This document shows, one piece after another, positions 41,586 through 58,831 of a stretch of DNA of 64,000 nucleotides. Location of the stretch: NCBI GenBank assembly GCA_044225365.1, contig JBGAIQ010000006.1, positions 96,001-160,000 of the forward strand. The letters are read 5' to 3'. Origin of the DNA: Planctomycetota bacterium. GTDB taxonomy: Bacteria; Planctomycetota; B15-G4; JADJEK01. A model generated the notes under the pieces. It saw only the letters and a program-made list of their open reading frames with translations, was not told the DNA's origin and searched no databases. Within the stretch, counting starts at the first letter, position 1; each line of letters opens with the position of its first letter. The translations under genes and the position numbers were made by a program.

Positions 41586-42400
41586 GTTCGAGGGGTCCTG
41601 CTCGGCGCTTCTTTTACGTCCCCGACCGCCTTCTGGTCGGAAAGGGTGGGGTGCGAATAGAACGTGGCGCCCTTCAGCCGCAGCCGAAGAGCCTGCCAGT
41701 AGATCGCGAGAACGACCTTCGCCGTGAGCCAAGGGTGGACGAGCAGAGTTCGAGCGAGTGAAACCGCCGACATCTCGCGACGTGATAGGGCCATCGTCGC
41801 CGCGAAGAACACGCGACCGCCGCGCGCGTTCTCCATGTGAATCGATGCTCGGTCCTCGGGCACAGTGAACTTCCAGTCATACTCGCAATCCATGGCGATG
41901 AACGGCGAGACGTGGAACGTCTTGGCGAAGTGAAACTGCAGAGCCAATGTGCCGCGAGTCGCCGCGGCCGCGGCATCCAGCACGTAGGTGTGTCGCTCGA
42001 GCCAGGGGGTGTTCGTGATCTCGGCGGCGATCGCGTCGAGAGCGCCGGCAGCGTCGTAGCAGTAGTAGAACGTCACCGGATTGAACGAGAGGAAGAACAT
42101 CCGCGGCGTCGTGAGCATTCGGACGCGTCCGTTCGGGCGCCGTCCGAGTCGTTTCTCGACGGTATCGAGGACCGCTTGCTTCAACGGGACGGCCGCGTCG
42201 CCGTGATAGTCGGCGCGCCGGAACCAGGCCAGAGCCGGACGCGACGTGGACCAGAACCAGCGTCCGGCGAAGACCGTGTCGAGTTCGTCGAGATCGAGCA
42301 GGACGAAGCAGACGTCGTACTCGAACTCGTGTGCGACGGAATCGTTTCGCGCATGTCGGACTCTGCCGAAGTAGAGCGCGTTGTTCGAGGCTCCACTCAC
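41582..42400 (-). CDS. DUF1365 family protein (UfaO-like)
   Basis: V.H.R...H.F.Y, FNPVTFY, EITNTPW.ERH.Y, K.FHVSPF, IYWQAL.L.LKG. Confidence 0.92.
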   Translation of the reverse strand: MSGASNNALYFGRVRHARNDSVAHEFEYDVCFVLLDLDELDTVFAGRWFWSTSRPALAWFRRADYHGDAAVPLKQAVLDTVEKRLGRRPNGRVRMLTTPRMFFLSFNPVTFYYCYDAAGALDAIAAEITNTPWLERHTYVLDAAAAATRGTLALQFHFAKTFHVSPFIAMDCEYDWKFTVPEDRASIHMENARGGRVFFAATMALSRREMSAVSLARTLLVHPWLTAKVVLAIYWQALRLRLKGATFYSHPTLSDQKAVGDVKEAPSRTPRT

Positions 42401-43638
42401 GACAACGCCTCCCCGAACGCCCGTGCGACGGCGAGTCCGCTCTTCACTCCGTCCTCGTGGAACCCGTAACCGAGGTAGGCCCCGCAGTAGAACGTGTTCC
42501 GGACTCCTTGGATCGAATCGACGCGCGACTGCGCTTGGATTGCGTCCCGCGTGTAGATCGGATGTTCGTATTCGAACTTCTGCAGGATCGCGCCGCTGGC
42601 GAGGCGCTCGTCGCGATTCAGGGTCACGCAGTATTCGCGCTTCGACGTGAGGGACTGCAGCCGGTTCATCCAGTAGGTCACGCCGAGTTCACCTTCTCCG
42701 TCGCGATGGTAGTTCCACGCCGCCCAGGCCTTTCTCCTCCGGGGCAGGATCGACGAATCGGTGTGCAGGGTGACGGCGTTCTTCTGATACGGGATCGCGG
42801 AGAGGACGGCACGTTCCGCGTCACTCGGATCCTCGAGCATGCGTAACGCTTGATCGCTGTGGGCCGCGATGATGACGCGATCGAATCTCTCCACCGTGCC
42901 GCCGCGCGTCCGGACGTGTACGCCGTCCGCGTCGCGTCGCACGCTCGCGATCGGGCAGTTGGTTCGAACCGAGTCCTCGAAGCCAGCGACGAGTCGCTCG
43001 ACGTAGGTCGACGAGCCGCCCTTCACGACGTACCACTGCGGACGATCGTCCACCGTCAGGAATCCATGATTGTCGAAGAAGCGCGCGAACGTCGGGAAGG
43101 GGAACTCGAGCATCCGCGAGGGCTCCGCCGACCAGATCGCGGCGCCCATCGGCACGATGTAGCGCTCGACGAAACTTCGGCCGTATCCGTGCTCGCGAAT
43201 GAAGTCACCGAGAGTGATGTCGGCGGAACCATTCGCGGCAAAGCGCGTCGCGTCGCGATTGAATCGCAGGATGTCGCGCACCATCGACAGGAAGCTCGGG
43301 CGGAGGAGATTCCGTCGTTGCGCGAAGAGGGTATCGAGCGAGGTTCCGTTGTACTCGATCCCGGAGTCCTCGCACCGCACCGAGAAACTCATGTCGCTCT
43401 TCTGGGAGGCGACGCCGAGCGCTTTCAGCAGTCGAATGAAGTTCGGATACGTGCGTTCGTTGAAGACGATGAATCCGGTATCGACCGCGAGCTCGCGATC
43501 CTCGTCGCGGACTCGCACCGTGTGCGTGTGGCCGCCGATCCAGTCGTTGGCTTCGAATAGGGTGACCTCGTGGTGCCGGCGCAACAGGTACCACGCCGTG
43601 AGACCCGAGATCCCCGCTCCGACGATGGCGATCTTCAT
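42397..43638 (-). CDS. FAD-dependent oxidoreductase (UfaD-like)
   Basis: IVGAGISG, GGHTHT, VDTGFIVFN..TYPN, GYGFHEDG. Confidence 0.92.
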   Translation of the reverse strand: MKIAIVGAGISGLTAWYLLRRHHEVTLFEANDWIGGHTHTVRVRDEDRELAVDTGFIVFNERTYPNFIRLLKALGVASQKSDMSFSVRCEDSGIEYNGTSLDTLFAQRRNLLRPSFLSMVRDILRFNRDATRFAANGSADITLGDFIREHGYGRSFVERYIVPMGAAIWSAEPSRMLEFPFPTFARFFDNHGFLTVDDRPQWYVVKGGSSTYVERLVAGFEDSVRTNCPIASVRRDADGVHVRTRGGTVERFDRVIIAAHSDQALRMLEDPSDAERAVLSAIPYQKNAVTLHTDSSILPRRRKAWAAWNYHRDGEGELGVTYWMNRLQSLTSKREYCVTLNRDERLASGAILQKFEYEHPIYTRDAIQAQSRVDSIQGVRNTFYCGAYLGYGFHEDGVKSGLAVARAFGEALS

Positions 43639-44639
43639 GATCGTTCCGGCTGCACGTTCTTCGGATCACGGGCCTCACGACGGACTCCGGCACGCTCGCC
43701 GGGATAGACGTGCGCAGGGACGGGGCGCAGATCCGAGATGAGCCCGAGAGCTTCGAGGACGCGCAATCCCAGGTACGTGATGTCGATCTCGTACCAGGCG
43801 AAGCCCTGCTTCACCGAGTGCGGGTAGTGATGGTGATTGTTGTGCCAGCCCTCGCCGAACGTGAGCGCCGCGAGCCACGGGTTGTTCCGACTTTCGTCGC
43901 CCGTCTCATAACGCCGGGAGCCGAAGCGGTGCGAGAGTGAATTGATCGTGCAGGTCGCGTGGAAGAGCACCACGGTCGAGATGAAATACCCCCAGACCAC
44001 GAGTTGCATTCCGCTCGTCCCGAGTTGCGGAGATGCGAGTTCCAGGAACCGACCGACGGCGTAGAGGGAGGCGGCGAGGATCAGGGGGGCGAAGGTGTCG
44101 AAGCGGTCGAGGAATCTCAGTTCCCTATATCGGGCGAGATCGGGAACGGCTCCCACGGGAGTCGCGAAGTTCTCCTTCGACATGATCCATCCCATGTGCG
44201 ACCAGAGCATCCCGTGCCGACCCGGTGAGTGAACGTCGTCCGCGGTGTCGCTCACTCGATGGTGATTGCGATGGTGTCCCGCCCACCACAAGGGTCCGCG
44301 CTGCGTCGCGGTCGCGCCGGTGAAGGCGAAGACGAATTGCATGAATCTCGAAGTACGGAACGAGCGATGGGAGAAGTAGCGGTGATAGAAGCCGGTGATG
44401 GCGAACATCCGAACGGCATAGAGCACGAGCGCCGCGGCCACCGCGATCGTGCTCACGCCGTAGACGAATGCGAGCAGACACGCGGCATGCAGCAGGACGA
44501 ACGGCAGGCATCGCAGCCAGTCGATCTCCTTCGTCGTCGGGTTCGCCATCGGAGCGTGCGCGTTGTCGAACCAACGCCGCAACGTCGCAAGCACACTCGA
44601 GCGAAGGCCCGTGGATCTCTCCGCCGATCGAGATCTCAC
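43635..44639 (-). CDS. Acyl-CoA (delta-9-type) desaturase
   Basis: His boxes HRYFSH, HRNHH, HNNHH. GTG overlaps the upstream stop (alternative ATG at 44549). Confidence 0.93.
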
Positions 44640-45697
44640 GAGCGCCCTCCATTGCGCTTGCTGAAGAGGTAGTGAGCGACCCACCACTCCGAGCCATCGT
44701 TCCAGGCGAACAGCTCCGCGCAAGCGAGGAAGAAGACGCGCCAGCGTTGGAACCACTTCTCGCCCTCGCCCGCGCCGTACGTGCGATCGAAGAGCGCGAT
44801 CACGGCATCGCGATGGCGATCGATCCGATCGAGCCAGGCTTCCGCCGTCCTCCCGTAGTGGACGCCGCTCACGACCCAATGGTCGTCCGCGGCGAGATCG
44901 TCCTGGAAGTGCAGAAAGAGGTCGTCGGAGGGCATCTGGCCTCCGGTGAAGAAGTACCTCCCCATCCAATCGTCGTCGCTCTCGGTCTCGAACGGATAGG
45001 CCGCCTGCTTGTGACAGAAGACGTGGAAGAACAGCTTGCCGTCGGCTTCGAGCCAGGTCGCGATACGCGCGAAGAGCTCCTCGTAGTTCCGAAGGTGCTC
45101 GAACATCTCGACCGACACGACCCGATCGAATCGCGCTTCGCCTGCGTGCTGCGGCGGCTCGAACGTGTTGATGTCGGCCGTGATGATCTCGACGTTCGTG
45201 CGCCCGATCTCCGCGAGTCGTTTCTCGATGTGCTTCTTCTGCGACGCGGAGTTCGAGACCGCGACGATCCGGGCATTCGGATACCGCTCCGCCATCCAAA
45301 CGGTGAGCGATCCCCAGCCGCAGCCGAGTTCGAGGATCCGCTGGCCATCCGCGAGATTCGCGCGTTCGCAGGTCATACGGAGCATGTCGGCCTCGGCGAC
45401 GTCGAGGTCGGCCACCCCTTCGTTGAAGTAGGCCGAGCTGTACTTTCGATGACGACCCAGCACGAGTTCGAAGAACTCGGGCGGCACTTCGTAATGCTGC
45501 TCGTTGGCAGCGCGAGTCTCGATCGCGAGCGGACTCTGCCGCAACGCCTCGATCCAACGGCGCTGACGCTCACTGCGCGCCTCGACTCCGCCGCGTTCGA
45601 GCTCGCCGATTCGACGCTTCAGGAGCCTTCGAATGCCGTAGCGGAGCATGGGCCGCGGCACGATGCCTTTGTCGATGATGGTGTCGAGGAGGGGCAA
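44636..45697 (-). CDS. SAM-dependent methyltransferase (Cfa-like, coclaurine-N-methyltransferase-like clade)
   Basis: [31 protein letters not shown]. Confidence 0.9.
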
Positions 45698-45706
45698 GTT
45701 CGAACC

Positions 45707-46510
45707 TCAGGCTGAAGTACGGGGGAACCAGGGAATGAACGGGCTCGTGGTGCGCTGATACTCGCGATACGCGTCGCCACGCGAGCGGAGCGCCTGCGTC
45801 TCGGTCGGCGGGATGCCGGTGACCTTGAGCACGAGGAGGAGCATCACCGGCGGCGCGATCCAGGTCATCCAGTCGTAACTGAAGGATCCGCCGCTCGCGA
45901 GGATGGGATACGCGAGCCAGTGCAGCCACTCGAAGAAGTAGTTGGGATGCCGAGAGTATCGCCACAGGCCGACACGACAGACCTTGCCTCGATGACTCGA
46001 ATCCGATCGGAACCTCTCCAATTGTCGGTCGGCGACCGCCTCACCGAGGATCGATGCGACGAAACAGGCACCCCCGAACGCCAGTGGCAGCGCAGTCCCA
46101 GGAGGATCGAGAAGGACACCGAGACAGGACAAGGACAGCACGACGACGGAGAGAGCCTGAGCCTGGAAGAAGCCGAAGAACCAGCCGTGCGCCGAGGCGC
46201 CTTTCGCGGCGCGGATCGCCGCATAACGCCCGTCCTCCTTCACGTGCCCGAGGACGCGGTGCGCAAGGAGATGCCACGCGAGCCGGACGGCCCACGTGCA
46301 GACGAGGACGACGACGACCCACGACGCCGCATCTCGCCGCTCGAGCGCGATCGCGTAGAAGATCGCGGTCGGCGCGAAGGCGAACGACCAGACCACATCG
46401 ACGATGCTCGCGTCCTCCCGACGCTTCTGGACGACCCACGCGGCCGCGAAGAGGACGGCAAGGCCGCCCCAAGCGAGCAGGAGGATCGAGGTCGTATGGA
46501 GCACCGTCAT
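45707..46510 (-). CDS. DUF1295 (steroid 5-alpha-reductase-like) membrane protein
   Basis: VDVVW, EDGRY, AD.QL..F, GLWRYSRHPNYFFE. Confidence 0.92.
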   Translation of the reverse strand: MTVLHTTSILLLAWGGLAVLFAAAWVVQKRREDASIVDVVWSFAFAPTAIFYAIALERRDAASWVVVVLVCTWAVRLAWHLLAHRVLGHVKEDGRYAAIRAAKGASAHGWFFGFFQAQALSVVVLSLSCLGVLLDPPGTALPLAFGGACFVASILGEAVADRQLERFRSDSSHRGKVCRVGLWRYSRHPNYFFEWLHWLAYPILASGGSFSYDWMTWIAPPVMLLLVLKVTGIPPTETQALRSRGDAYREYQRTTSPFIPWFPRTSA

Positions 46511-46528
46511 GGGAGTCTCGTCCTCCCC

Positions 46529-46556
46529 TTCGCAGCCGGCACCCAACCTGGATTCA
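46529..46556 (-). promoter_or_regulatory. Putative ECF promoter of the lipid operon
   Basis: TGAATCC-N17-CGAA just upstream of the GGAGG RBS of the DUF1295 gene. Confidence 0.5.
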
Positions 46557-46597: not shown

Positions 46598-49501
46598 TCA
46601 TGGGACCTTGCACCGTTCCAAGCCGGCCTTCGCCGCATCGAGCAGCCCGCCACGCGCTCCGAGATCGATCACGCGCGAGTAGCACGCCTTTGCGAGCGGC
46701 TTCGCATCGTCGCCCTCCGAGCACTCGTAGACGCGCCCGAGTTGGAAGAACGGCTCTGCGGTGTACGGAAAGGCCTCCGCGAGACCCCGAGCGTCCGCGG
46801 CGAGCTTCGTATCGGCGTGATCGCCGCGAGCGAATCGCTCCGTGCGCGCGGTGATCGCTGCGAGACGATCGATGTACGCAGGGGACGCCCCCTTCAGGAA
46901 TTCGTCGCTGATGCGCGTCATCGCATCGATGTCGCCATCGTTCGCGAGTCGGTCGTAGACGCGGGATCGCAACGCGAGGTTGCCGGACACCGCGAGAAGT
47001 CTCTGAGTGATCGCCGTGACATCGCGATCGACCCGGGATACGGCGTCGATCAGCGCCCGATCCACTGCGCCGGTGCAGGCCGTCTCGATCGCCTCCGGGC
47101 GCGTACCGACGAAGAGTCGGCGTCCGAGGCGTTGATCGAGGGTGTCCGCGATTCGAGCAGCGTCGTTGCGATCGTGATCGAGGCCGGAGACGACGAAGTC
47201 GCACGCCGAGACTCCGACCGCGAACTCGGCATCCGCATAGACAGCGAAGGCCGGTCGCGAGAACGGGAGTTGAGTGGGACCCGAATCGACCCACTCACCG
47301 CCCGCCGCGATCACCGTCCTCGCGACGAGCGCCGCGAGCAACGCAGCCCCTTCCGACCCGCAGAGGTAGGCCCCCCTGGTCACGCGAAGCACATCGATCA
47401 CGTCGTCGACTCCGCGCGCTTCGGTCGGCAGCGACAATCCGAATCGCTCGCGTGCCCCGTGATCCGCGGCGCCGAGGAACGCCTCGATTGCGGCCGGCGA
47501 TTCGATCGCAGCCCAAGGCGAGCTGAACTTGCATTGCGCGATCGCGTCGCGCGCGACCTCGCGCATCATCTGCGCGGACGGGAGCGCGCACGCTCCTCCG
47601 AGTCGCCGCGCGTCGTCGAGCGGGATCGAGTAGAAGTTCCACCGCGATCCCTTGTCGTCGAGCGCCGAGGTCGCTGCGAAGAGGAGCTTCCCTCCGGCGA
47701 CACTCATCCCGACGCCGTCCGTGCCGCCGAGGAGGCGTTCGCGCGAGCCGTCCGCATGAATCCACCAGATCCCGTAGGTTTCGTTCTCCGGGGCGCCCGT
47801 GAAGAGGACACCGTCGTCGGCTCGCGCCAGTTCGCGCAGGTACGAGTATCGCAGCAGGTCGGTACGCACGCCGCTACGGAGGTCCAGGCTCGAGAGGGAG
47901 CCGGGACGATCCCCCGAAACGTCGACCTCGGTGACGCCGACGTACAGGAGCTTCGCCGACGCATCGAGTTGACTATCTCCGACCCAGCCGGGTCTCCACG
48001 TCGCGATCGGTCGCTCGGCGCCATCCACTCCACGCAAGACGAAGTCGATCGGAACCGCGGTCTCTTGGACCACGAACCCGAGCGGGACGGGACCCTTCGT
48101 CGCATTCGAGTAGCGGACGAGCGCGATCCCAGAGTCGGTCTCGCCGCAGAGTCGCGTCGCGGAGAACGACACCGGGGCCTCCTGGCCTTCCGGGCCGATT
48201 CGAACGAGTCCGTCACGGCCCTGCGTGATCAACGAGTTGCCGAGCGTCGAGACTCCCCGACCCTGTACCTCACTCCCTTCGTAGAGAGGTTTTGCAGCGA
48301 CGAAGTCGCGCTCGATTCGCAGGATGGACCGGCGAGTCGTGACGAGGATCCCACCGTCGAGGGCGGCATCGGCATCGACGACATCGAAGTCGAGGCTCGT
48401 AACGAATCGGCTCGCCGAGAGGAAGGCGGCGAACTCCGCTCCAGGTGTCCTGTGCGCCTTGGAAGCGGGCGGCAGCGTGAAGGGATCGAGGGGTCGAGGA
48501 GGATCGATCGTGATCGAATCGATCAAGGCCCGACGGATGCGGGAGACGGATTCGACCGGCGCTGGGTAGATCAGTCGGATGTCGATCGTTCTCTCGGCGG
48601 AGATCTCCGCGACGATCATCTCGATCATTTGCCCCTTGTTCCCAGGCATCTGGCGGACTTCGCGCAGGGCCGGCTTTCCGGCGAGTTGGAAGCGAGTGCG
48701 CGGCATCTCGGCGGGGATCGACTCGTCGCACCCGACCTTGGCGACGATGTCGTCGAGTACTCCCTCGAGTCCCGCGGGATCGGGCTTCGAACCTCGTAGG
48801 AAGTGGACCGCCACGTCCCCGTTGGGGCTGACGAGCGAGAGCAGAGGATCGTTCGCGACCTTCTTCGCGTCGATCTCCGCAGGCACGTGCGAGACACGCA
48901 CGGCCGAATCGTCGACTCGCACGATGCGGGTGCGCGGGCGCGTCGACCGTCCCCACGGGCTCTTCGCGCTCGGGAATTCGAGAGCGGTCCGAAGCTTCGT
49001 CCCATCGGCCTCGCCGTCCTTCGCGCGATCGGCATCGATCTGGGACAGGATTAGGAAACCTAGTCCATTGCGCGATACGACCTGGACCACTGCGTGGCGT
49101 CGAACCTTGAGCTCGGTGATCTCGCACGAGAGTCGGCTCCAGTCGGTCTCCGTCGTCGAGGACTCCGAGGAGTGGAACTCGAACTCCGACGTGATCTTCG
49201 CGTCGAGATTGCGGTCGAGCGCACCGAACCAGTTCTCGATCACTCGTCGATGATCGGCCTCGACATCGACGGTTTGGCCGCACTCGACGACGAACAAGTA
49301 CGTGTACGCCTTCTTCTCGGAGTCCACCTCGCGAACGAACTGGTCGTCGCCGGCGCTCGCCACGATCCGCTGCCGCCTCCATCCCTCGTCGCAGTGCATC
49401 TTCGCGCCATGGGTCCCGATGTCGAAGTCTTCGCGCGCGATCGAGACTCGAGCCCCGGCGAGACATGCGAGCGCGACGATTCCATCGGCGATTCGGCGCA
49501 C
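46598..49501 (-). CDS. Large secreted hypothetical protein (probable beta-rich/propeller middle, TPR-like C-terminus)
   Basis: AAGGAGG RBS before GTG 49501, signal peptide, FFQLGRVYE...AKACYSRVI TPR-like end; about 967 aa. Confidence 0.7.
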   Translation of the reverse strand: MRRIADGIVALACLAGARVSIAREDFDIGTHGAKMHCDEGWRRQRIVASAGDDQFVREVDSEKKAYTYLFVVECGQTVDVEADHRRVIENWFGALDRNLDAKITSEFEFHSSESSTTETDWSRLSCEITELKVRRHAVVQVVSRNGLGFLILSQIDADRAKDGEADGTKLRTALEFPSAKSPWGRSTRPRTRIVRVDDSAVRVSHVPAEIDAKKVANDPLLSLVSPNGDVAVHFLRGSKPDPAGLEGVLDDIVAKVGCDESIPAEMPRTRFQLAGKPALREVRQMPGNKGQMIEMIVAEISAERTIDIRLIYPAPVESVSRIRRALIDSITIDPPRPLDPFTLPPASKAHRTPGAEFAAFLSASRFVTSLDFDVVDADAALDGGILVTTRRSILRIERDFVAAKPLYEGSEVQGRGVSTLGNSLITQGRDGLVRIGPEGQEAPVSFSATRLCGETDSGIALVRYSNATKGPVPLGFVVQETAVPIDFVLRGVDGAERPIATWRPGWVGDSQLDASAKLLYVGVTEVDVSGDRPGSLSSLDLRSGVRTDLLRYSYLRELARADDGVLFTGAPENETYGIWWIHADGSRERLLGGTDGVGMSVAGGKLLFAATSALDDKGSRWNFYSIPLDDARRLGGACALPSAQMMREVARDAIAQCKFSSPWAAIESPAAIEAFLGAADHGARERFGLSLPTEARGVDDVIDVLRVTRGAYLCGSEGAALLAALVARTVIAAGGEWVDSGPTQLPFSRPAFAVYADAEFAVGVSACDFVVSGLDHDRNDAARIADTLDQRLGRRLFVGTRPEAIETACTGAVDRALIDAVSRVDRDVTAITQRLLAVSGNLALRSRVYDRLANDGDIDAMTRISDEFLKGASPAYIDRLAAITARTERFARGDHADTKLAADARGLAEAFPYTAEPFFQLGRVYECSEGDDAKPLAKACYSRVIDLGARGGLLDAAKAGLERCKVP

Positions 49502-49539
49502 GGAACTTCCTCCTTCGGACGCCCGCGCGCGGGCCCGAG

Positions 49540-50316
49540 TCACGGCTGAGCGAGTGCAGCGATGCGGGATCGGTCCGAAACCACCACCCCGCCCGGTTTC
49601 TCCACGGTCACGGCGAACAACGCGGGCTCGGTCACGCGAATCTTCGCTTCGATCGGCACGATCGCGTCCGGGCCCTCGCAGTCGAACACGCCGCCATCGA
49701 CCGGGTAGCGATCGTCGCGCGTCTTGTCGAAGATCCACAGTTGGTATTGCTCGGCCTTGGCCTCGTTCGCTTTGAGGCCATGGAAGACCATGAAGCCCCG
49801 CTGCTCCTCAGAGGACCACACCACCTCGCCGTTCATACCGGACCCGGTTCCAAGCGGATCCGGCCCGGCCTTCCAGTTCCAACGCTTCACATCGTGCGCG
49901 CGCGCGACGAGGCGATCCACCTCGAGTTGCGCCGCGGCGAGCGAGCGGTCGCCGAAAGTCTCGCGGGGAGTCTTCAGCAGGAAGAGGAATCCCGTGAGGA
50001 CGACTGCGGCTGCGGCGAGATAGACGAGCGTATGCAAGCGGCGGAGTCCCTTGGGCGCCGATCGGGACTCGCCGGCCTGGGCCGTCGCCCGCAGGATCCG
50101 ATCCCGCAGTGATGGCGGTAGCGGCTCCCGATCGCGCGCAGCGATCGCAAGGTCGGCCTCGGCGACGGTCTCCATCAGCACTCGACGGGGCACGTCGCGA
50201 TGTCGCGCGAGCAGATGATCGAGTTCGCTGCGTTCCGACGCCGCGAGGCAGCCGAGGGCCTCGTCGGCGAGCAGTTCGAGCAAGCGCTCGCGCTCGGTTC
50301 GAAGAGTGCCGCTCAT
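49540..50316 (-). CDS. Anti-sigma factor, RskA family
   Basis: N-terminal ASD (LL...ALG.L...E), TM, QYQLW, FAVTVE.PGG..VS. Confidence 0.9.
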   Translation of the reverse strand: MSGTLRTERERLLELLADEALGCLAASERSELDHLLARHRDVPRRVLMETVAEADLAIAARDREPLPPSLRDRILRATAQAGESRSAPKGLRRLHTLVYLAAAAVVLTGFLFLLKTPRETFGDRSLAAAQLEVDRLVARAHDVKRWNWKAGPDPLGTGSGMNGEVVWSSEEQRGFMVFHGLKANEAKAEQYQLWIFDKTRDDRYPVDGGVFDCEGPDAIVPIEAKIRVTEPALFAVTVEKPGGVVVSDRSRIAALAQP

Positions 50317-50897
50317 GATGGGACCTCCGCCGAACCCGAAGCTCGGGGGTCGCCGGGTCGATCGTCCACTTCACCAAGGAGTCGCTTCACGGCGAGCAGT
50401 CCGCGGCGAGCGTGGGACTTCACCGTCCCGAGCGGCAGCTTCAGCAGACGGGAGATTCCGTCGTGTGAGATCCCCTTCATGATCGAGAGTTCGAGGATCC
50501 TGCGGCGTTCGGGATCGAGTGTGTCGAGAGCTTTCCGCACTCGCGAGGTCTCGTCCCCGATCTCCGCGACCGACTCCTCGGGAATGGGCGCGGATGGTTC
50601 GGCGACATTGTCGAGCGATGCGGTCCCTGCCTGACGCTCGGCCTGACGACGACGATCGACGATTCGCCGCCGCGCGATCATCGCGACGAACGCGGCCTCG
50701 GGCGCGATCGTCGCATCGAAGCGCGCGGCCGCCTTCCAGATCGCGACGAAGGCGTCCTGCGCGGCGTCCTCCGCGTCGGCGGCGCTGTACGACAATCGGC
50801 GAGCGAGCGACCAGACGAGACCACCGTAGCGATCGAGACACTCCTCGACCGCCTTGGGATCACCTCGCCCGATACGTTCCAGGATCGATTCGCTCAC
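50313..50897 (-). CDS. ECF sigma factor (SigK-like)
   Basis: GGAGG RBS before GTG, DAEDAAQDAF..IW, SH..I...L..PLGTVKS..RRGL; ATGA overlap with rskA. Confidence 0.9.
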   Translation of the reverse strand: MSESILERIGRGDPKAVEECLDRYGGLVWSLARRLSYSAADAEDAAQDAFVAIWKAAARFDATIAPEAAFVAMIARRRIVDRRRQAERQAGTASLDNVAEPSAPIPEESVAEIGDETSRVRKALDTLDPERRRILELSIMKGISHDGISRLLKLPLGTVKSHARRGLLAVKRLLGEVDDRPGDPRASGSAEVPS

Positions 50898-50964
50898 GCG
50901 CTCGCAACTGCCTCCAACGTCGCCCTGCGCACGGACTGCGCGGGACGAGGAGGATGGAACCGAA

Positions 50965-50992
50965 TTCTGCGCGGCATCGCAACCGGGAATCA
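50965..50992 (-). promoter_or_regulatory. Putative autoregulatory ECF promoter
   Basis: TGATTCC-N17-AGAA, similar to the 46529-46556 motif including part of the spacer. Confidence 0.4.
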
Positions 50993-51304
50993 GGGCGATC
51001 TCGTCGATCTCGCATTCGCGACCGTGCGGGTGCGCTCGCGCATCTCTTGCCCAGGCAGCGTGAATCACCGCGAACGGCGAAGAAGCCGCCTCGAATCCGG
51101 TGCAGGTGGAGACCAAGGTTCTCGGGCTCTCGTTTCGAGGTTCGGTCGCGCGCCGAGACGGAGTGCCTCTACGATCCCGCGCAACGGCTGTTATCCTGTG
51201 GCGAGCCCGCGACGGATGCAGCGAAGCCGGAAAGACTCGTTGCGAACGGCGATCAGGTCGCAGTACACCAAGGCGTTCATCGAGAGACGAAGAGACCGGG
51301 CAGC

Positions 51305-52717
51305 ATGTTCGAGCGATTCACCGACACGGCGGCGGAGGCGCTGCGCATAGCGGAGCGCGAGGCGGATGCCGCGTGCCGTAGTGCGGTTGGGAGCGAGCAC
51401 CTGCTCCTCGGGCTCTTCCAGGTGCGAGCCGTCGCCTCGATCGTGTTGAGACAGTCGGGGGGAGATCTCGACCGCTGCCGCGCCCATCTCGCGAAATCGA
51501 TGGGTGGCGCTCACGTCGCGATCGCACGTCACCTCCGCCGCGCGCTGCGCAAGAGCCTTGGCGACGTATCCCAGCGCTACAGCACGAACCTCGCCCGAGT
51601 GCTCGCCCTCGCGGAGGAGGCCGCTCGCGAACTCGCACACCCCAAGGTGGGGACCGAGCACCTGCTCTGGGCGCTCGTCGAACACGCGGATGGAATCACT
51701 CGATCTTACTTCGAGTCGATCGAACTCTCACCGGAGCAAGCTCGGCGACAGATCCTCGAGATGCTGCGCGTCGCGCAGACGGCGTTGAAGGATCAGGGAG
51801 CGGACGATCGTCGCGGAAGGAAGCGTCGGTCACCTCTGCTCGACATGTTCACGACGGATCTCGTGCGTCGCGCGCGAAAGAACAAGCTGCCGCGATTGAT
51901 CCGCCGCACTGCCGAGGCGCAACGCATCCACGAGGCGATGCTCCGCATGATCGCGCGCAATGCGCTCGTCGTCGGCGAGAACGGGTGCGGGAAGACCGCT
52001 CTCGTTCAGACCTTTGCCAAGGAGATTGCGCTCGGCGGAGCCCCGGAACCGCTCCTGCGCAAACGCATCCTCGAACTCGATCCCATCCTCCTCGTCGCCG
52101 GCACGAAGTACCGCGGGGAGTTCGAAGAACGGATCACGAACCTCCTGCTCGAGATCCAGAAGGCGGGCGACGTCATCCTCTTCATCGACGACGTCCATCT
52201 CCTCGCACTGCCGTCCACCCAGGGCAGGAATGACGGCGCGGCCGGTGTGTCGAATCTGATGCACTTGCTCTCGCCCGCGATCGATCGATTCGAGGTGCAG
52301 ATGATCGCGACCTGCGCCAAGAGCGCCGAGTCGCGGGTCATCGAGCAGTTCCCGACGCTCGGCACCGCGTTCCACCGTATCGTGCTCTCCCCTCCCAGCC
52401 GCGACGTGGTGCTCGCGATCCTGAACAAGAAGCGACCCGAATACGAGGCTCATCATCGCCTGCGGATCGAGCCCGCGGCGCTCGCGACCGTTCTCGCCGC
52501 GGCCGAAGCGTCGCTCGGCGTGGATCCATCGGAATCGCTCGTCGTCTCCGCACTCAAGATGCTCGATCGTGCCGCGTCGGAGGCCGTGCTCGATCGCGAA
52601 CTGCGCAACCGCGAACGCACCGCCCTCGATGCCGCAGCCGTACGCGAACTCCTCGTCCTCGCGCAGGCGAACCCGCGCCATCCAACGCCAACGGCGAAGG
52701 CGGATTCGAATGCTTGA
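51305..52717 (+). CDS. Truncated ClpC-like protein 1 (double Clp-N + AAA+ D1 only)
   Basis: MFERFT start, GSEHLLLGL/GTEHLL, Walker A GENGCGKT, pore loop GTKYRGEFEER, Walker B ILFIDD; 470 aa, no D2. Confidence 0.88.
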   Translation: MFERFTDTAAEALRIAEREADAACRSAVGSEHLLLGLFQVRAVASIVLRQSGGDLDRCRAHLAKSMGGAHVAIARHLRRALRKSLGDVSQRYSTNLARVLALAEEAARELAHPKVGTEHLLWALVEHADGITRSYFESIELSPEQARRQILEMLRVAQTALKDQGADDRRGRKRRSPLLDMFTTDLVRRARKNKLPRLIRRTAEAQRIHEAMLRMIARNALVVGENGCGKTALVQTFAKEIALGGAPEPLLRKRILELDPILLVAGTKYRGEFEERITNLLLEIQKAGDVILFIDDVHLLALPSTQGRNDGAAGVSNLMHLLSPAIDRFEVQMIATCAKSAESRVIEQFPTLGTAFHRIVLSPPSRDVVLAILNKKRPEYEAHHRLRIEPAALATVLAAAEASLGVDPSESLVVSALKMLDRAASEAVLDRELRNRERTALDAAAVRELLVLAQANPRHPTPTAKADSNA

Positions 52718-54428
52718 ACGAGCTTCCGAACGCTGCCGCGACGCGCTCGAACGGGCGCGGCAACACGCCCTGCGGTTCCGCCACACACGGATCGGCACTT
52801 CGCATCTCCTGCTCGGCCTGCTCGACGAGGGCGCCGGCGTCGGGACATCGACGCTCCGTCACCTCGGTGTGGAGGTCAAGGTCGTCCGCGCCGAGATCGA
52901 GAGTCGCCTGCAGCCGGGAGCCGGAGTGATCGGGCGCAAGGCGATGCCCTTCGACGAGGAGTGTCGTGCGGCGCTCGCCGCGGCCGTGGGAGCGGCGAAG
53001 GAGCGCAACAGCCCCTACGTCGGCACCGAACACCTGCTCCTCGGTCTGCTCGCCGACGCTCACAGCTTCTCCGCTCGCGTACTCGACAAGTTCGGGATCA
53101 CGCACAACGACGCCGCCGCGGCAGCCGCCGAGTTGAAGGCGGATCCGCAGCGCCCCGCGTCCGCCCGGGCGCAGGATTCCCGGGATCGCAAGCCGCGTTC
53201 GCCTCGCCTCGGACCCACGAGCCAGCTCGACACCATCGCCGTCGACCTCGCGAATCGCACGCAGCGCCGTCAACTCCGTCCCGTATGTGGTCGCTTCGCC
53301 GAACTCGAACGCATCAAGCACCTCCTCTCCCAAGAGCCACGCACTTCGGTATTCGTGCTCGGCAAGAGCGGAGTGGGCAAGACGTCGGCAGTGTTCGCGC
53401 TCGCGCGCGACATCCTCATCGGCAGCGTCCCGTCCGCACTCCTCGGCAAGCGCATGCTCGCGATCGATCCCGTACGACTTGCCGCGGGATGCCGGCACAA
53501 GGACCAGCTCGAACAACGCGTCGACGAGATCGTCGCGCAAGCCGAACGCGCACGCGACGTGATCCTCGTGTTCGACGATGCCGGCTGGCTCTTGAACGGG
53601 GTGCATGACATTCATGATCACCACGACGGCCACATCGGCCACTTCGAGGGAACGACGCACTCGCTCCAGCGCGGTCGCGAAGCGCGCGACGACGCGCCAG
53701 CCGGACTCGAGAGCGAACGACCGTCCAACCCGGACGTCACCGACATGTTCGCGCGCTTCCGACCGGCGCTCGAAGCGCGCCGACTCCAGGCGATCCTCAC
53801 CCTCGCGCCGAACGGCGAACCGGACGCGGAGAGCAAGCTCCTGCGGGCGAACTTCGGTGATTGGTTCGAATGCGTCTCGCTCTTCCCGGCCGACATCGAT
53901 CGGACTCTGATGACGGTCTACGAACTGCGGGAGCAACTCGAGAACCATCATCGGGTGACCATCACCGAAGATGCTCTGAAGACCGCCGTCCAACTCGCCG
54001 TTTCGGCGGGCGACAAGAACGATCTGCTCACCACCGCGCTCCGCCTCGTCGACGAAACCGGAGCACGCCTCACCGCACGCGCTTTCACCCCACCCGTTCG
54101 CGCCACCAAGCTGGTTCGCGAGATCGAGAAGCTCGAGGCCGCGCGCTCCGAGGCGTTCGAGCGCAAGGATCATTCCGACGCCGCACGACGCTTCGACGAA
54201 GCTCGCGCGAATCGTGAGCTGCTCGAACAGATCGAGCGACGCTGGCGCACGGAGCTTCGCGAGAAGCTGCGGGTCGTCGACGAGACCGCGATCGCGGAGA
54301 CCTGGTCGATCCACGGCGGTTATCGTACGGCTGAGCCGAATCGAGCGACGCCGCGGGCCGACGCTCCATCGTTCGAACCGCCCACCGAACCCACCGAGTC
54401 CAGCAAGCCATCGGACGGCGGCGCATGA
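52710..54428 (+). CDS. Truncated ClpC-like protein 2 (Clp-N + D1 with His-rich insert + UVR/M domain)
   Basis: GTSHLLLGLL/GTEHLLLGLL, GKSGVGKT, ILVFDD, UVR-like coil; 572 aa, no D2. Confidence 0.85.
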   Translation: MLERASERCRDALERARQHALRFRHTRIGTSHLLLGLLDEGAGVGTSTLRHLGVEVKVVRAEIESRLQPGAGVIGRKAMPFDEECRAALAAAVGAAKERNSPYVGTEHLLLGLLADAHSFSARVLDKFGITHNDAAAAAAELKADPQRPASARAQDSRDRKPRSPRLGPTSQLDTIAVDLANRTQRRQLRPVCGRFAELERIKHLLSQEPRTSVFVLGKSGVGKTSAVFALARDILIGSVPSALLGKRMLAIDPVRLAAGCRHKDQLEQRVDEIVAQAERARDVILVFDDAGWLLNGVHDIHDHHDGHIGHFEGTTHSLQRGREARDDAPAGLESERPSNPDVTDMFARFRPALEARRLQAILTLAPNGEPDAESKLLRANFGDWFECVSLFPADIDRTLMTVYELREQLENHHRVTITEDALKTAVQLAVSAGDKNDLLTTALRLVDETGARLTARAFTPPVRATKLVREIEKLEAARSEAFERKDHSDAARRFDEARANRELLEQIERRWRTELREKLRVVDETAIAETWSIHGGYRTAEPNRATPRADAPSFEPPTEPTESSKPSDGGA

Positions 54429-55942
54429 TCGATGCAAATGCCGCAGGAGCGGAGGTCCAGGCATCCGCCCTCGAAGAAGCCATGACCGACACGACCGCGC
54501 CAGCTCCCACCGGATTGCTCAGCATCGCGATGCACGAAGCTCGCGAACTGTCGCACGATCACGTGGGAACCGAACATCTCCTGCTCGGACTCCTGCTCGA
54601 AGAAGGCGGAGCCGCACGGGCGATCCTGAACGAGCAGGGCATCACGGCCGAGCAGCTCCGAGCCGAGTTGAAGCGGGCGATCGGCGCGTCGACCGAAAAG
54701 GCTTCGAACAGTCCGCTCCCCATCACTCCGCGAGTGAAGCAAGCCCTCGAGAGCGGCGCCGAGGCCGCGCGACGCACCCATCACGGCGACGTTCGGTCGG
54801 AGCACGTGCTGCTCGGACTGCTCGATCAGGCCGATGGCCTCGCGCGGCGCGCGCTCGAGCGTTTCTCCGTCGACATCGATGAATGCCGCCGCCGCACGCA
54901 GGAGCGCCTGCGAAGCGACGCACAGAACGACGACAAGCCCGAGCCGCGCGAGGCCGAGATCCCGGCGCTCGAAGCGTTCGGCGAAGAAGTGGCGGTTCGC
55001 GAATCCGAGAGCCTCGGGCTCGCGCCCATTCCGCCATTCGACCATGCAGTGCTCGTCGGACTCCTGCGGCGGGAGAATCGGGCGATCCTTCTGTGCGGAG
55101 CGAGCGGCTGCGGAAAGACGAGCGCCGCGAAACGGCTCGGCGCCGCATTGCGTTCACGACGCGGGGCGTTCGAACTGCCGCTGCGCCGTCTCGTCGCGAT
55201 CCCGCTGCCCTGCATCGTCGCCGGCGCGCGACACCGCGGGCGAGTCGAGGAACGCCTGCGCATCGTGTTCAAGGAAGCGGCGGAGAGTGGCGACGTCGCG
55301 CTCTTCTTCGACGACTTCGAGTGCGTCCTCGGCTGCAACGAACTCGCGCTCGCGCTCGAACTCGCGATGGCGGCTTTCACGATCCCGATCGTCGCCGCCA
55401 TCGATACGGTGGCTCTCGAGACGCTCGCTCGCAATCACCCCTCGCTCTACTCGCGATTCGTGCGAATGGCCGTCCCACCGCTCCTCGAGACCGCGCTCGA
55501 TGCCGCGCTTCGCGAGCAGGCGAGGCGACTCGAGCAATTCCATTCGATGCGGATCACGGATGCTGCGCTCGTCGCTGCCGCCGATGCCGGTTCGGCCGAT
55601 TCCCGCGGCCACGGCGCGTCGCGCCTGTCGAACGCGATCACGTTGCTCGACCGCGCGGCCGCCGCGGTTCGCGCCGCGATGCTGCGGCCGTCGCCTGCGA
55701 TCAAGACCGTGCTCGCGGATGCGATCCGCTTCGAGCGCGAGGCCGATCAGGCCGCCGCCGAGGGTGACGAGCGCCGATGCGCGAGTCTCGCCGCCAAAGC
55801 AGGCGCCTCGCGAGCGACCGCTCACGCGCTGATCCTCGCGTTGTCCTCCACGGCATCTTCGGTCGAACTCACGGCCGAACACGTCCAAGTTGCGCGTCGT
55901 CGCGCCACCGCACGTCCGCCTTCACCCAAGATGCACACCTGA
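54425..55942 (+). CDS. Truncated ClpC-like protein 3 (Clp-N + degenerate D1 + M-like coil)
   Basis: GTEHLLLGLL/SEHVLLGLL, GASGCGKT, GARHRG.VEER, ALFFDD; 505 aa, no D2. Confidence 0.85.
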   Translation: MIDANAAGAEVQASALEEAMTDTTAPAPTGLLSIAMHEARELSHDHVGTEHLLLGLLLEEGGAARAILNEQGITAEQLRAELKRAIGASTEKASNSPLPITPRVKQALESGAEAARRTHHGDVRSEHVLLGLLDQADGLARRALERFSVDIDECRRRTQERLRSDAQNDDKPEPREAEIPALEAFGEEVAVRESESLGLAPIPPFDHAVLVGLLRRENRAILLCGASGCGKTSAAKRLGAALRSRRGAFELPLRRLVAIPLPCIVAGARHRGRVEERLRIVFKEAAESGDVALFFDDFECVLGCNELALALELAMAAFTIPIVAAIDTVALETLARNHPSLYSRFVRMAVPPLLETALDAALREQARRLEQFHSMRITDAALVAAADAGSADSRGHGASRLSNAITLLDRAAAAVRAAMLRPSPAIKTVLADAIRFEREADQAAAEGDERRCASLAAKAGASRATAHALILALSSTASSVELTAEHVQVARRRATARPPSPKMHT

Positions 55943-55952
55943 CAGGGCCAGA

Positions 55953-57440
55953 ATGTTCGAACGCTTCACCGATCGCACGCGCCGCGTGCTCGTCCTCGCG
56001 CGCCAGCACGCCCATCGCATGCAACACGCGGCACTCGAGGCGCATCACCTCCTGCTCGGAATGCTGGAAGAGGCGAAGGCGACCGACGGCAGCGCGGAGC
56101 GACTCCTCGGCATCGACATCGAGAGCGCCAAGGCGATGGTCGATCGGATCGCGCCGCTCGGCAACCGTCCACCCGACGCTCACGACGCGCTGCCCTTCGG
56201 TCCGTCCGCGCGTGCACTCCTCGTGCGCGCCACCGCCGAGGCCGATGCATCGCGTTCGGAGGGCGTCGATCTCGAACACCTCGTCCTCGCGCTCGCGCTG
56301 GATGAGAGCCACCCGGCGGCCAAGCTCGTCGAACAGAACGGACGATCGCTCGAACAGGTTCGTCGCGACGTGCGGGACATCCTCGCCCCGCGCGCGCACG
56401 AGCTCGAGTCGGTCGTCGAGGAGACGCATCGCACGCCTGCCCTGGATGCGTTCTGCCACAATCTCGTCGATCGCGCTCACCAAGGCCAGCTCGACCCGTT
56501 CGTCGGCCGAGGCGCCGAACTGGAACGTCTCTACGAGATCCTCTTGTGCCGCCGCGACGCCAACGCGCTGCTCGTCGGATCGAGTGGTTCCGGCAAGACC
56601 GCGCTCGCCCGCGGTCTCGCGATCGCCATCGCCGAAGGCACGGCTCCCACACCGCTGCTGTCGGCCAAGCTCTTCGCCGTCAACTCGCTTGCTCTTCTCG
56701 CCGGCACGCGGTATCGCGGGCAGCTCGAAGAACGCGTGAAGGCGCTGCTCTACGAAGCACGCAAGCTCTCGCAGGTCATCCTCTTCATCGACGACGCACA
56801 AGCGTTGCTCGGCGAAGAGGGCGCATCGACCGCTTGGCTCACCCACGACGTCCCCGGCGCCGGCTTCCTCTCGATGTTGAAGCACGCCTTCGACGCCGCC
56901 GAGACGAGGTTCATCCTCGCGCTCGACAGTGCGGCGCTCGCGCGCTTCCGCATCGCGCAGCCTTCGGCGCAGCGCCACCTCCAGGAGATCGACGTCGCAC
57001 CGGCGAGCAAGAGCGAGACCGGTGACATCCTTCGCGCACTGAAGCCCCAGTTCGAGCTCTATCACGACGTCCGCATCGACGACGCCGCTCTCGCGACCGC
57101 GGTGCTGCAACGCCCGCGCCTGCAATCGCCGGGAGACCCCAAGGACCGTGCGCTGCCGGGTCGAGCCGTCGATCTCATCGATCGGGCGTGCTCGGAGATC
57201 GCGCTCGCCTCGACCGAGCCGACCGAGGACCTGAAGCAGATCGAATCCGAGATCGCGCGACTCCAGCACGAGGAAGCGGAGAACGTGAAGGCGCGCGAAT
57301 ACATCGCGGCCGCCGCTGGCCGCGAAGCCCTCGACACCCTCGAGAAGCGCCGGGAGCGAATCCTGTCGGAGCGTCGCGGTCAACGCGCCGTCGACGCCGC
57401 CGCGATCGAGCGCGCGGCGGCCAGTCTCGCCGGCGTCTGA
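55953..57440 (+). CDS. Truncated ClpC-like protein 4 (Clp-N + D1 + UVR/M domain)
   Basis: MFERFTDR start, LDPFVGR, GSSGSGKT, GTRYRGQLEER, ILFIDD, LPGRAVDLIDRA; 495 aa, no D2. Confidence 0.88.
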   Translation: MFERFTDRTRRVLVLARQHAHRMQHAALEAHHLLLGMLEEAKATDGSAERLLGIDIESAKAMVDRIAPLGNRPPDAHDALPFGPSARALLVRATAEADASRSEGVDLEHLVLALALDESHPAAKLVEQNGRSLEQVRRDVRDILAPRAHELESVVEETHRTPALDAFCHNLVDRAHQGQLDPFVGRGAELERLYEILLCRRDANALLVGSSGSGKTALARGLAIAIAEGTAPTPLLSAKLFAVNSLALLAGTRYRGQLEERVKALLYEARKLSQVILFIDDAQALLGEEGASTAWLTHDVPGAGFLSMLKHAFDAAETRFILALDSAALARFRIAQPSAQRHLQEIDVAPASKSETGDILRALKPQFELYHDVRIDDAALATAVLQRPRLQSPGDPKDRALPGRAVDLIDRACSEIALASTEPTEDLKQIESEIARLQHEEAENVKAREYIAAAAGREALDTLEKRRERILSERRGQRAVDAAAIERAAASLAGV

Positions 57441-57448
57441 ACGAACGC

Positions 57449-58831
57449 TCAGCCGTCGAGCGGCAGGAGCCGCACGTTCTTGAAGTGGATCTCCGCTCCT
57501 TCGGACTGCAGGCAGATGTGGCCCTTCACGCGGTCGGCTTCCGAGCCTTCGTTGAGAATCGTGCCGTTCACGGAGAGAACGACCGTTCCGTGATCGACCG
57601 TGATGCGGTAGTGGTTCCACTCGCCGATCGGCTTCTCGAAATGCTCGCCCGCATGCGTGCGCTTGGTGTTGCGGCCGTTCTTGCGATCCGCCGCGGTCTT
57701 CACCGGGAATTCCTCGATCTGCCAGAAGTCACCCGCGCTGTCGGACTCGAGCTGGGCTTCGAGGGACTTCGGCCACACCATGTCCTTGCCCGTCATACGC
57801 ACGAGGACGCCGCTGTTGCGGCCGCCCTTGTCGCTCGGCTCCCACTGCCAGTCGACTTCGAGGATGTAGTCCTGGTAGTCGGCCTCGGTGCGGATGTAGC
57901 CGGCCGGGTTGCCCTTGCACACGATCATTCCGTCGCGCACCGACCACACCTGATCCATCTTCACGTTTGGATCGGTGAGGCAATAGGTCCAACCCTTCAG
58001 ATCCTTGCCATCGAAGAGATCGATCCACGTGTCCTTCACGTCGCCCGTCGCGGCCCATTCACAGCCGCGAACCAGGAGCCGCTGGAACTGCCAGTCCTCG
58101 TGGGACGTGTGCGTCTCCGGCTTGTCGCGCCATACGTGGCCGAGGGGCGTGTGGAAGACACGCGCCTTGCCGTACTGACCCACCATGATCATCGGTTCGT
58201 TCTGACCCGTGCCGCCTTCCTTGGGATCGGAGAACGCGGTCGCGAGGACGGTGTAGGGCACGTTCTGCGCGTTCACGAGTTTGTGATACAGCTCGTCGGG
58301 ATGCTGGCGCACTTCGCCGAGGCCGCGGGTGATCGGATGCGTGTAGTCGCCGATCGTGAGATCGAAGGGATGGTAGGTGCCATGGCCCGTCCCAGCGCGC
58401 CACAGGTGCCCGACGATCTTCTCGTACTCCGTGAATCCCGGGAACGCGTTGTTCGCTGCATGGATCACGGCGACGTTGACTCCACCGGCGACCGCCGCGA
58501 CGAAGCCCTTGTTCGCCGCATCGCTCCACGGCTTGCCGTTGTAGTCGAGCAGGATGAGCTTGTACTTCGAGAGCGCCGCCGCATCGGCCAGCGTTTCGCT
58601 CGGCGTCGTCGTGATCGTGACCTCGAACTTTCCGCTTCCCTCGAGCACGCGCTTCATGCTGCGGCTCGTGAAATCGAAGTCGTGGTTGTTCTCTCCGGTC
58701 ACGATGAGCGTCGGGATCTTCTCGGCGTTGGCGCGAGGGGCGATTGGCGGAACGTCGGCGGCGGACGCTCGATTCATCGTGAAGAGCGAAAGGGTGGCGG
58801 TCACGAGGGCGAGGATGGCGCGAACATTCAT
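57449..58831 (-). CDS. ThuA-like domain + DUF1080 (3-keto-disaccharide hydrolase-like) secreted protein
   Basis: TGENNHD, HPIT.G, DELY, RVFHTPLGH; LFDGKDL.GW, NSGV, GEWN, LQSEG..I.F.NV. Confidence 0.88.
   Translation of the reverse strand: MNVRAILALVTATLSLFTMNRASAADVPPIAPRANAEKIPTLIVTGENNHDFDFTSRSMKRVLEGSGKFEVTITTTPSETLADAAALSKYKLILLDYNGKPWSDAANKGFVAAVAGGVNVAVIHAANNAFPGFTEYEKIVGHLWRAGTGHGTYHPFDLTIGDYTHPITRGLGEVRQHPDELYHKLVNAQNVPYTVLATAFSDPKEGGTGQNEPMIMVGQYGKARVFHTPLGHVWRDKPETHTSHEDWQFQRLLVRGCEWAATGDVKDTWIDLFDGKDLKGWTYCLTDPNVKMDQVWSVRDGMIVCKGNPAGYIRTEADYQDYILEVDWQWEPSDKGGRNSGVLVRMTGKDMVWPKSLEAQLESDSAGDFWQIEEFPVKTAADRKNGRNTKRTHAGEHFEKPIGEWNHYRITVDHGTVVLSVNGTILNEGSEADRVKGHICLQSEGAEIHFKNVRLLPLDG

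Follow-up and report, generated by a model that had tools for sequence, protein, structure and literature searches.

Four half-length ClpC paralogues in one operon of a Planctomycetota bacterium: a rare family that lacks the second AAA+ ring and has a fixed Walker B aspartate

Clp/Hsp100 ATPases are the textbook two-ring AAA+ motors: in the known Clp ATPases the second ring (D2) is the main threading motor, and the loop that docks onto ClpP is located in it. For the first ring (D1, or AAA1), the part of the ClpB study drawn on here describes the trans-acting arginine fingers R331/R332, the Walker B glutamate E279 and the pore-loop tyrosine Y251 as all being needed for activity (PMC6593972). 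In PspF the Walker B substitution E108D, like E108Q and E108A, is reported in the excerpted account to lower ATPase activity while ATP-dependent engagement of the target remains (PMC4132715). Here we describe four consecutive genes, A-D, from a 64,000-nucleotide stretch of DNA of a Planctomycetota bacterium (contig JBGAIQ010000006.1, positions 96,001 to 160,000 of the forward strand; henceforth the window, in which all coordinates are given). They encode half-length relatives of ClpC in which the N-domain and D1 are present, D2 is missing, and the catalytic glutamate of the Walker B motif is replaced by aspartate. Somewhat better than evenly, we favour reading them as an operon of non-proteolytic ClpC derivatives that would bind ATP and hydrolyze it poorly, act together, probably as a mixed oligomer, and serve as a holdase or regulator and not as an unfoldase.

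The four genes lie on the forward strand and together span 51305-57440 in a window of about 65% G+C. Gene A (51305..52717) encodes 470 residues comprising Clp_N, the AAA (D1) domain and the lid, with neither an M-domain coil nor D2. Its start, MFERFTD, agrees with those of its orthologues, and the long 5' extension of the raw open reading frame (ORF), which begins at 50519 and runs antisense to a sigma-factor gene, was set aside. Gene B (52710..54428) starts at an ATG in an 8-nt overlap with the stop of A; its 572 residues comprise two Clp_N repeats, a degenerate AAA (D1) domain, a lid, an M-type coil and a disordered tail. Gene C (54425..55942) has two candidate starts: ATG 54425, giving 505 residues and an ATGA overlap with the TGA stop of B, and ATG 54482, giving 486 residues and fitting the N-termini of the orthologues. 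Gene D (55953..57440) begins 10 nt past the stop of C and encodes 495 residues with Clp_N, AAA (D1), lid and an M-type coil, ending at the D1/D2 boundary. Coding frames were picked by third-position GC (GC3), which is 0.78-0.81 in B, C and D, similar to the neighbouring genes; the raw frame of A failed this filter, and the long antisense ORFs overlying A-D are without a coding GC pattern. No signal exceeding that of shuffled sequence emerged when 50800-57700 was scanned for promoters and terminators. The locus is best read as an operon of four separate genes. The first-pass annotation of the window had spoken of four Clp-like AAA modules; four D1 modules are indeed present, each in a gene of its own and not as modules of one or two proteins.

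In each of the four proteins Pfam recognizes Clp_N, AAA and AAA_lid_9. The Clp_N double repeat (PF02861) is matched with E-values of 5e-6 to 1e-25 and the D1 module by PF00004 and PF17871, the AAA match of B lying under the Pfam cut-off (17.1 against 21.2 bits). The families of the second ring, AAA_2 (PF07724) and ClpB_D2-small (PF10431), gave no Pfam match in A-D, and in alignments with full-length ClpC all four proteins terminate at the D1/D2 boundary. D aligns with Mycobacterium tuberculosis ClpC1 over residues 1-477 (E 1.8e-59), and the best PDB matches of A, B and C are again ClpC chains (E 1.5e-57, 3.4e-53 and 1.3e-39, respectively). An AlphaFold model of D (mean predicted local distance difference test score 79.9) has ClpC chains as its top PDB fold matches and long helices at residues 425-477. 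The alignments of B, C and D continue across the ClpC M-domain, and A stops shortly after the lid. The NCBIfam equivalog models for ClpB, ClpA, ClpV/TssH, ClpK and ClpG score at best 110-212 bits, against cut-offs of 885-1900. The whole D2 ring is thus absent from each protein as read from its sequence, a larger change than those at the nucleotide site and one that had been overlooked. Because D2 holds both the main motor and the ClpP-docking loop, its loss should leave A-D unable to be the usual partners of Clp proteases; the docking loop is counted as missing through the loss of D2, the loop motif itself not having been searched for.

A truncation exactly at the D1/D2 boundary could also mean that ClpC genes have been split and A-D represent their N-terminal parts, with D2 halves encoded elsewhere and joining them in trans. 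We consider this very improbable: no D2-type gene (AAA_2, ClpB_D2-small) was seen among the scanned ORFs of the window, where ClpP, ClpC, ClpS and D2-only genes were likewise not seen, the gene after D is convergent, and a split would explain neither the four copies nor the remodelled D1 site.

That remodelling concerns the nucleotide site. The Walker A motif fits GxxGxGKT throughout, as GENGCGKT in A (51974-51997), GKSGVGKT in B (53361-53384), GASGCGKT in C (55097-55120) and GSSGSGKT in D (56577-56600). The Walker B motif ends in two aspartates where DE is usual: ILFIDD in A (52175-52192), ILVFDD in B (53562-53579), ALFFDD in C (55298-55315) and ILFIDD in D (56778-56795), with the Asp-Asp codons GACGAC, GACGAT, GACGAC and GACGAC. 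Both observations bear out the first-pass annotation, except that the positions it gave for the Walker B strings (52187-92, 53574-79, 55310-15 and 56790-95) cover the two aspartate codons only. Its third observation, erosion of the arginine fingers, needs more qualification. The strings that it named do stand at the RRF site: PTLGTAF in A (52352-52372), ANFGDWF in B (53847-53867), PSLYSRF in C (55439-55459) and PSAQRHL in D (56961-56981) align with ALxRRFQ of ClpC, so that RRF corresponds to TAF, DWF, SRF and RHL. Both arginines are lost in A and B, but the second is kept in C and the first in D; the fingers are eroded and not all gone. Sensor-1 (GATT in ClpC) is degenerate in all four groups. 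Pore loop 1 reads AGTKYRG in A (52097-52117), AGCRHKD in B (53484-53504), AGARHRG in C (55220-55240) and AGTRYRG in D (56700-56720).

Just past the Walker B motif, gene B also carries a 29-residue insertion with seven histidines (GVHDIHDHHDGH...; residues 297-325, window 53598-53684). It is seen in none of the five B orthologues nor in ClpC, and could be a metal-binding loop or a product of recent slippage.

Searches of 5.8 billion clustered proteins and 1.84 billion representatives recovered five orthologues of D (P0009-P0013, 55-59% identity), five of B (P0128-P0132, 50-57%), four of C (P0247-P0250, 41-46%) and three of A (P0253, P0254 and the 208-residue fragment P0256, 47-59%). Beyond these, matches fall to about 36% identity and are mostly full-length ClpC, many of them labelled Planctomycetota. 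All the orthologues come from metagenome sources (Logan, JGI), and none with an NCBI nr or UniRef source was found among the listed members. Orthologues of different genes share the same longest-contig size in several cases, namely 28242 (A, B, D), 8936 (A, C, D), 32058 (B, C, D), 13083 (B, C, D) and 55109 (C, D), which suggests that the gene cluster is conserved.

Motif states were read from an alignment of 21 family members (4 A, 6 B, 5 C and 6 D). The Walker B motif reads DD in 21/21, and the substitution is thus family-wide; close homologues do not alternate between DE and DD, even across groups that are 29-36% identical to one another. A background of 377 other ClpC-like proteins, with both motifs located in 366, reads otherwise: DE stands in 362/366 (357 by regular expression and 5 misfires of that expression whose sequence has DE), and the exceptions are P0281 (DD), P0277 (DT), P0304 (DR) and P0400 (DG). 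Only about 36 columns are common to 18 or more of 20 family members. At five of them the family is unlike ClpC, and the Glu-to-Asp column of Walker B is one of the five (20/20). As Asp and Glu are one third-position change apart (GAC here), the fixation of DD points to selection and not to missing opportunity.

The constraint does not extend evenly over the site. The Walker A lysine is kept in 18/21 members and is an arginine in three (A_P0253, C_P0249 and D_P0013). The first finger arginine is present in 6/6 D proteins and in none of A, B or C; the second is found in three of the 14 sequences from A-C in which this segment is covered, no member has the pair, and in A, B and C the finger positions vary freely. 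In the pore loop an aromatic residue is kept in A (4/4, one of them with Phe) and D (6/6, RYR), and histidine takes its place in B (6/6) and C (5/5), so that RH[KR] is found in 11/11 members of these two groups. With DD fixed in 21/21 and the fingers of A-C varying freely, the alignment supports selection for the aspartate together with relaxed constraint on trans-activation. The first-pass annotation had proposed selection for nucleotide-binding pseudo-ATPases; the selection for Asp is upheld by these counts, and the nucleotide-binding pseudo-ATPase is a predicted function.

These data also bear on whether A-D might be decaying clpC duplicates, in effect pseudogenes, with motif changes that are mere neutral erosion. 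The loss of D2, the degenerate fingers and sensor-1, and long branches in the trees described below would fit such decay. We nevertheless disfavour it as extremely improbable, given four intact ORFs, coding-type GC3 in B, C and D, orthologues of each gene (37-62% identical) in several metagenome lineages, and group-specific variants that have become fixed (DD in 21/21, RH[KR] in 11/11 B and C members, RYR in 6/6 D).

A more substantial alternative is that the proteins are slow but working ATPases. The hhhhDD form of Walker B is used by some P-loop NTPase classes such as STAND/NB-ARC. On this view the second aspartate would be the catalytic base, the conserved arginine of D (or another basic residue) would complete the site of its neighbour, and a single ring in which one or a few sites are live would work as an unfoldase, a disaggregase or a timer. 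Consistent with this, Asp is fixed in 21/21 members where a pure binding site should accept other residues, one finger arginine is kept in 6/6 D, the aromatic pore loop persists in A and D, and fingers are retained in full-length Clp proteins of Clostridia whose D1 has DD (ERRF in locus L016; SHRF in L022 and L023). Set against these points are the lost and variable fingers of A, B and C, the degenerate sensor-1 of every group, the replacement of the Walker A lysine in 3/21, the absence of the D2 motor ring, and the reduced ATPase activity reported for PspF E108D in the excerpts of that study (PMC4132715). On balance we regard working ATPases as unlikely.

A-D are 29-36% identical to each other pairwise and 28-36% identical to ClpC. 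In a quick tree of 51 rows, 20 family rows lie on one side of a single branch (SH-like approximate likelihood ratio test, SH-aLRT, 99); in a more careful tree of 31 rows, 17 do so, with ultrafast bootstrap (UFBoot) 97 and SH-aLRT 97, and in 98% of 200 bootstrap trees. Neither tree includes the fragment P0256, and the careful one also leaves out P0129, P0249 and P0010. Each of the groups A-D has support of 99-100, with no resolved branching order among them, and the nearest rows to the family are ClpC proteins of Planctomycetota, a placement that by itself points to a planctomycete as the probable host. Common descent of the family, branching next to Planctomycetota ClpC, is therefore well supported, with the qualification that long branches could inflate the support values; it is also argued for by the shared truncation point, DD motif and operon arrangement.

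Two further metagenomic proteins also derive from ClpC and are complete at half its length: P0281 (481 residues, DD, finger RW) and P0277 (487 residues, DT, finger RQ). They lie on contigs of 23807 and 3841 bases, respectively, retain the first finger arginine only, and have N-domains very like that of ClpC. In the quick tree they fall within Planctomycete ClpC, and in the careful tree at the base of the ClpC side, adjoining the family, at weakly supported branches (52/68 and 57/97). They may be stem relatives of the family or independent inventions.

This kinship raises the possibility that A-D are regulators or decoys of the cell's own ClpC, whose N-domains would compete for adaptors or tagged clients, or whose coil would join resting-state assemblies of ClpC, in either case tuning ClpCP proteolysis. 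Such a role is compatible with the favoured reading and is more specific about the target. Besides the position of the family beside Planctomycetota ClpC, it draws on the N-domain, the best or near-best conserved part of the proteins (58-66% identical within groups), in which the EH motif of the second Clp_N repeat is found in 20/20 family members; on the coil, matching the ClpC M-domain, that B, C and D retain; and on the half-length P0281 (DD) and P0277 (DT) with their ClpC-like N-domains. There is a precedent in mycobacterial ClpC2, described in the part of the source used here as an N-domain paralogue that is not proteolytic and that binds phosphoarginine (PMC13345244). Yet no ClpC, ClpP or adaptor gene is found among the scanned ORFs of the 64-kb window, A has no coil, the interaction with ClpC is putative, and the need for four distinct paralogues stays unexplained. 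We hold this to be a tentative possibility on the unlikely side.

The favoured reading, that of a jointly acting, hydrolysis-poor set of ClpC derivatives, can be put as follows. The nucleotide site has been remodelled, with the P-loop and the Mg-binding Asp kept, the catalytic Glu changed to Asp, and the change then fixed; sensor-1 and the trans-acting arginines, apart from the one in D, have been freed from constraint. ATP would serve as an assembly or conformational cofactor, its turnover being slow or limited to particular interfaces. The subunits would cooperate, and their translational coupling, together with complementary features (Tyr/Phe in A and D, His in B and C, Arg in D), suggests that they do so as a mixed oligomer. 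The conserved N-domains would provide the binding surface for clients or adaptors, and the differentiated pore loops (Tyr/Phe or His) would grip rather than thread. Such a complex may act as a holdase or a regulator of protein quality control instead of an unfoldase. A complex prediction for the four AAA cores (A 185-427, B 179-454, C 168-396, D 170-416, with D as partner) scored 0.00 against a mark of 0.32 in a run made without controls, and it counts neither for nor against co-assembly.

Several points weigh against this proposal. Gln, Ala or Asn should equally allow ATP binding, yet only Asp is retained, which hints at weak catalysis: with Asp strictly kept and no other residue seen, weak or regulated hydrolysis is possible. 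The finger arginine of D, kept in 6/6, together with the Asp leaves room for one slow, regulated site. The change of the Walker A lysine to arginine in 3/21 suggests that some subunits may bind nucleotide abnormally. Among two-ring relatives from Clostridia, L016 reads DD and its close relative L010 reads DE, with RRF intact in both, and for this reason DD by itself is no mark of a dead module. The biochemical role of every member is predicted from sequence; the co-assembly that we infer draws solely on operon structure and complementary motif retention; and the adjacency of the orthologues is deduced from equal longest-contig sizes only.

There is also a more elaborate form of the proposal. 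Here the four paralogues would form a hetero-oligomeric, single-tier Hsp100 ring in which almost all nucleotide sites are structural, with one composite site, made of the conserved arginine of D and the DD pocket of its neighbour, serving as a slow switch. Such a ring may have evolved from ClpC inside Planctomycetota, with single-copy half-length proteins like P0281 and P0277 as intermediates. In this full form we think it doubtful.

Upstream of A-D, a divergent operon (46598-51116, reverse strand) encodes an ECF-type (extracytoplasmic function) sigma factor (50313-51116, start uncertain), which is divergent from A-D, an anti-sigma factor with an RskA_C domain (49540-50316, reverse strand) and then a 1046-residue ORF. 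The latter has a signal-peptide-like start and ESM Atlas scores of at most 0.75, and gave no Pfam, NCBIfam or PADLOC match. Control of A-D by this sigma factor is at most a candidate link. Downstream of D lies the convergent gene, which encodes a ThuA/3-keto-disaccharide-hydrolase protein. Farther off, 40260-46546 (reverse strand) carries lipid-modification genes: two CMAS-type methyltransferases, a flavin amine oxidase-like protein, a fatty-acid desaturase domain protein and a DUF1295 protein. In a 1205-residue ORF at 14471-18088 (reverse strand), N-terminal ECF sigma regions 2 and 4 precede CarboxypepD_reg and further beta-sandwich repeats; this is an uncommon fusion, or else two genes have been taken for a single one.

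Beyond the metagenomic orthologues, a scan of genome contigs with the D-group profile (one genome per GTDB species) found no orthologous locus. It returned 53 loci, none above 39% identity, which encode ordinary or other Clp ATPases. Thirteen of them (L025, L033, L036, L037, L039-L041, L043, L046-L048, L050 and L051), from metagenome-assembled genomes (MAGs) of Bacilli/Coprobacillus type, are stop-to-stop ORFs of about 430-680 residues with a single Walker A motif, RRF fingers in all and a DE Walker B in all except L043, where the regular expression misfired; they look like single-ring Clp-like proteins or fragments. Several ESM Atlas clusters (55-185 members, 433-578 residues) also combine Clp_N with AAA_lid_9, and in four of these the AAA Pfam match is found in only 49-61% of members. 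Their commonest phyla are Actinomycetota, Acidobacteriota, Fervidibacterota and Planctomycetota. As judged by these clusters, which are known by domain content and not by sequence, half-length degenerate Clp-like proteins may be more widespread than the A-D family.

Of the described proteins, the ClpC of Planctomycetota (e.g. P0022 of Humisphaera borealis), with the ClpC structures 8a8u, 6em8 and 3j3s, stands closest: the Clp_N double repeat, D1 and the lid are common to both, as is the short M-type coil in B, C and D, and ClpC supplies the best sequence matches (28-36% identity; PDB E-values of 1e-39 to 1e-59), the best fold matches and the nearest tree branch. A-D differ from it in being without D2, in DD for DE, in their degenerate fingers and sensor-1, in the His pore loop of B and C, and in being four paralogues in one operon. 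The two-ring Clp proteins of Clostridia MAGs at L016 (9956-12232), L022 (5686-8436) and L023 resemble A-D in having DD in D1 (3/53 loci); in contrast to A-D they keep D2 with DE and at least one finger arginine, and DD is not fixed among them, as L010 (526-2853) reads DE. A-D keep a full D1 module with a P-loop and belong to a different lineage from mycobacterial ClpC2, which is not known to have any AAA module. As far as the consulted part of the source goes, ClpC2 is like A-D in being ClpC-derived, in having kept the N-domain and in being unable to drive proteolysis (PMC13345244). The excerpts likewise describe how in the engineered variants ClpB E279A/E678A and PspF E108D/Q/A hydrolysis is lowered and ATP-dependent engagement remains (PMC6593972, PMC4132715). 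Those are mutants of working motors, whereas the aspartate of A-D is natural, fixed and combined with the loss of fingers and of D2. ClpI of Actinomycetota is likewise a Clp class defined from sequence only, in the passages of its description used here (PMC10149685). We considered whether A-D could be ClpI and rejected this: those passages group ClpI as an unfoldase with ClpB and ClpC and mention no truncated or degenerate form, and it comes from another phylum (PMC10149685).

An identity with a known defence system was also rejected, as PADLOC gave only weak generic AAA matches (E 5e-5 or worse). Non-catalytic subunits occur in other AAA+ assemblies of unrelated clades, namely the clamp-loader delta and delta', the D2 of NSF and the D1 of Pex1/6. 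TorsinA with LAP1/LULL1, likewise of an unrelated clade, offers AAA+ modules whose task, whether or not they bind nucleotide, is assembly or activation and not hydrolysis, according to the part of the account drawn on (PMC4999309). None of these is a set of four D1-only Hsp100 paralogues. In the literature that we searched on pseudo-ATPase and degenerate Walker B AAA+ proteins and on truncated ClpC, no description matching A-D was found. As half-length ClpC paralogues encoded by one operon of four genes, A-D form a subfamily that is rare and undescribed. They would show a natural route from a two-ring motor to a regulatory half that is split into four fixed paralogues. With Glu-to-Asp fixed while the remaining catalytic apparatus drifts, they may amount to a natural experiment on a D1 ring freed from ATP hydrolysis, and they are a candidate for a new class of regulators that would act in the protein quality control of Planctomycetota without being proteolytic. 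The single-tier hetero-ring, if true, would give prokaryotes a parallel to the specialised subunits of eukaryotic AAA+ rings.

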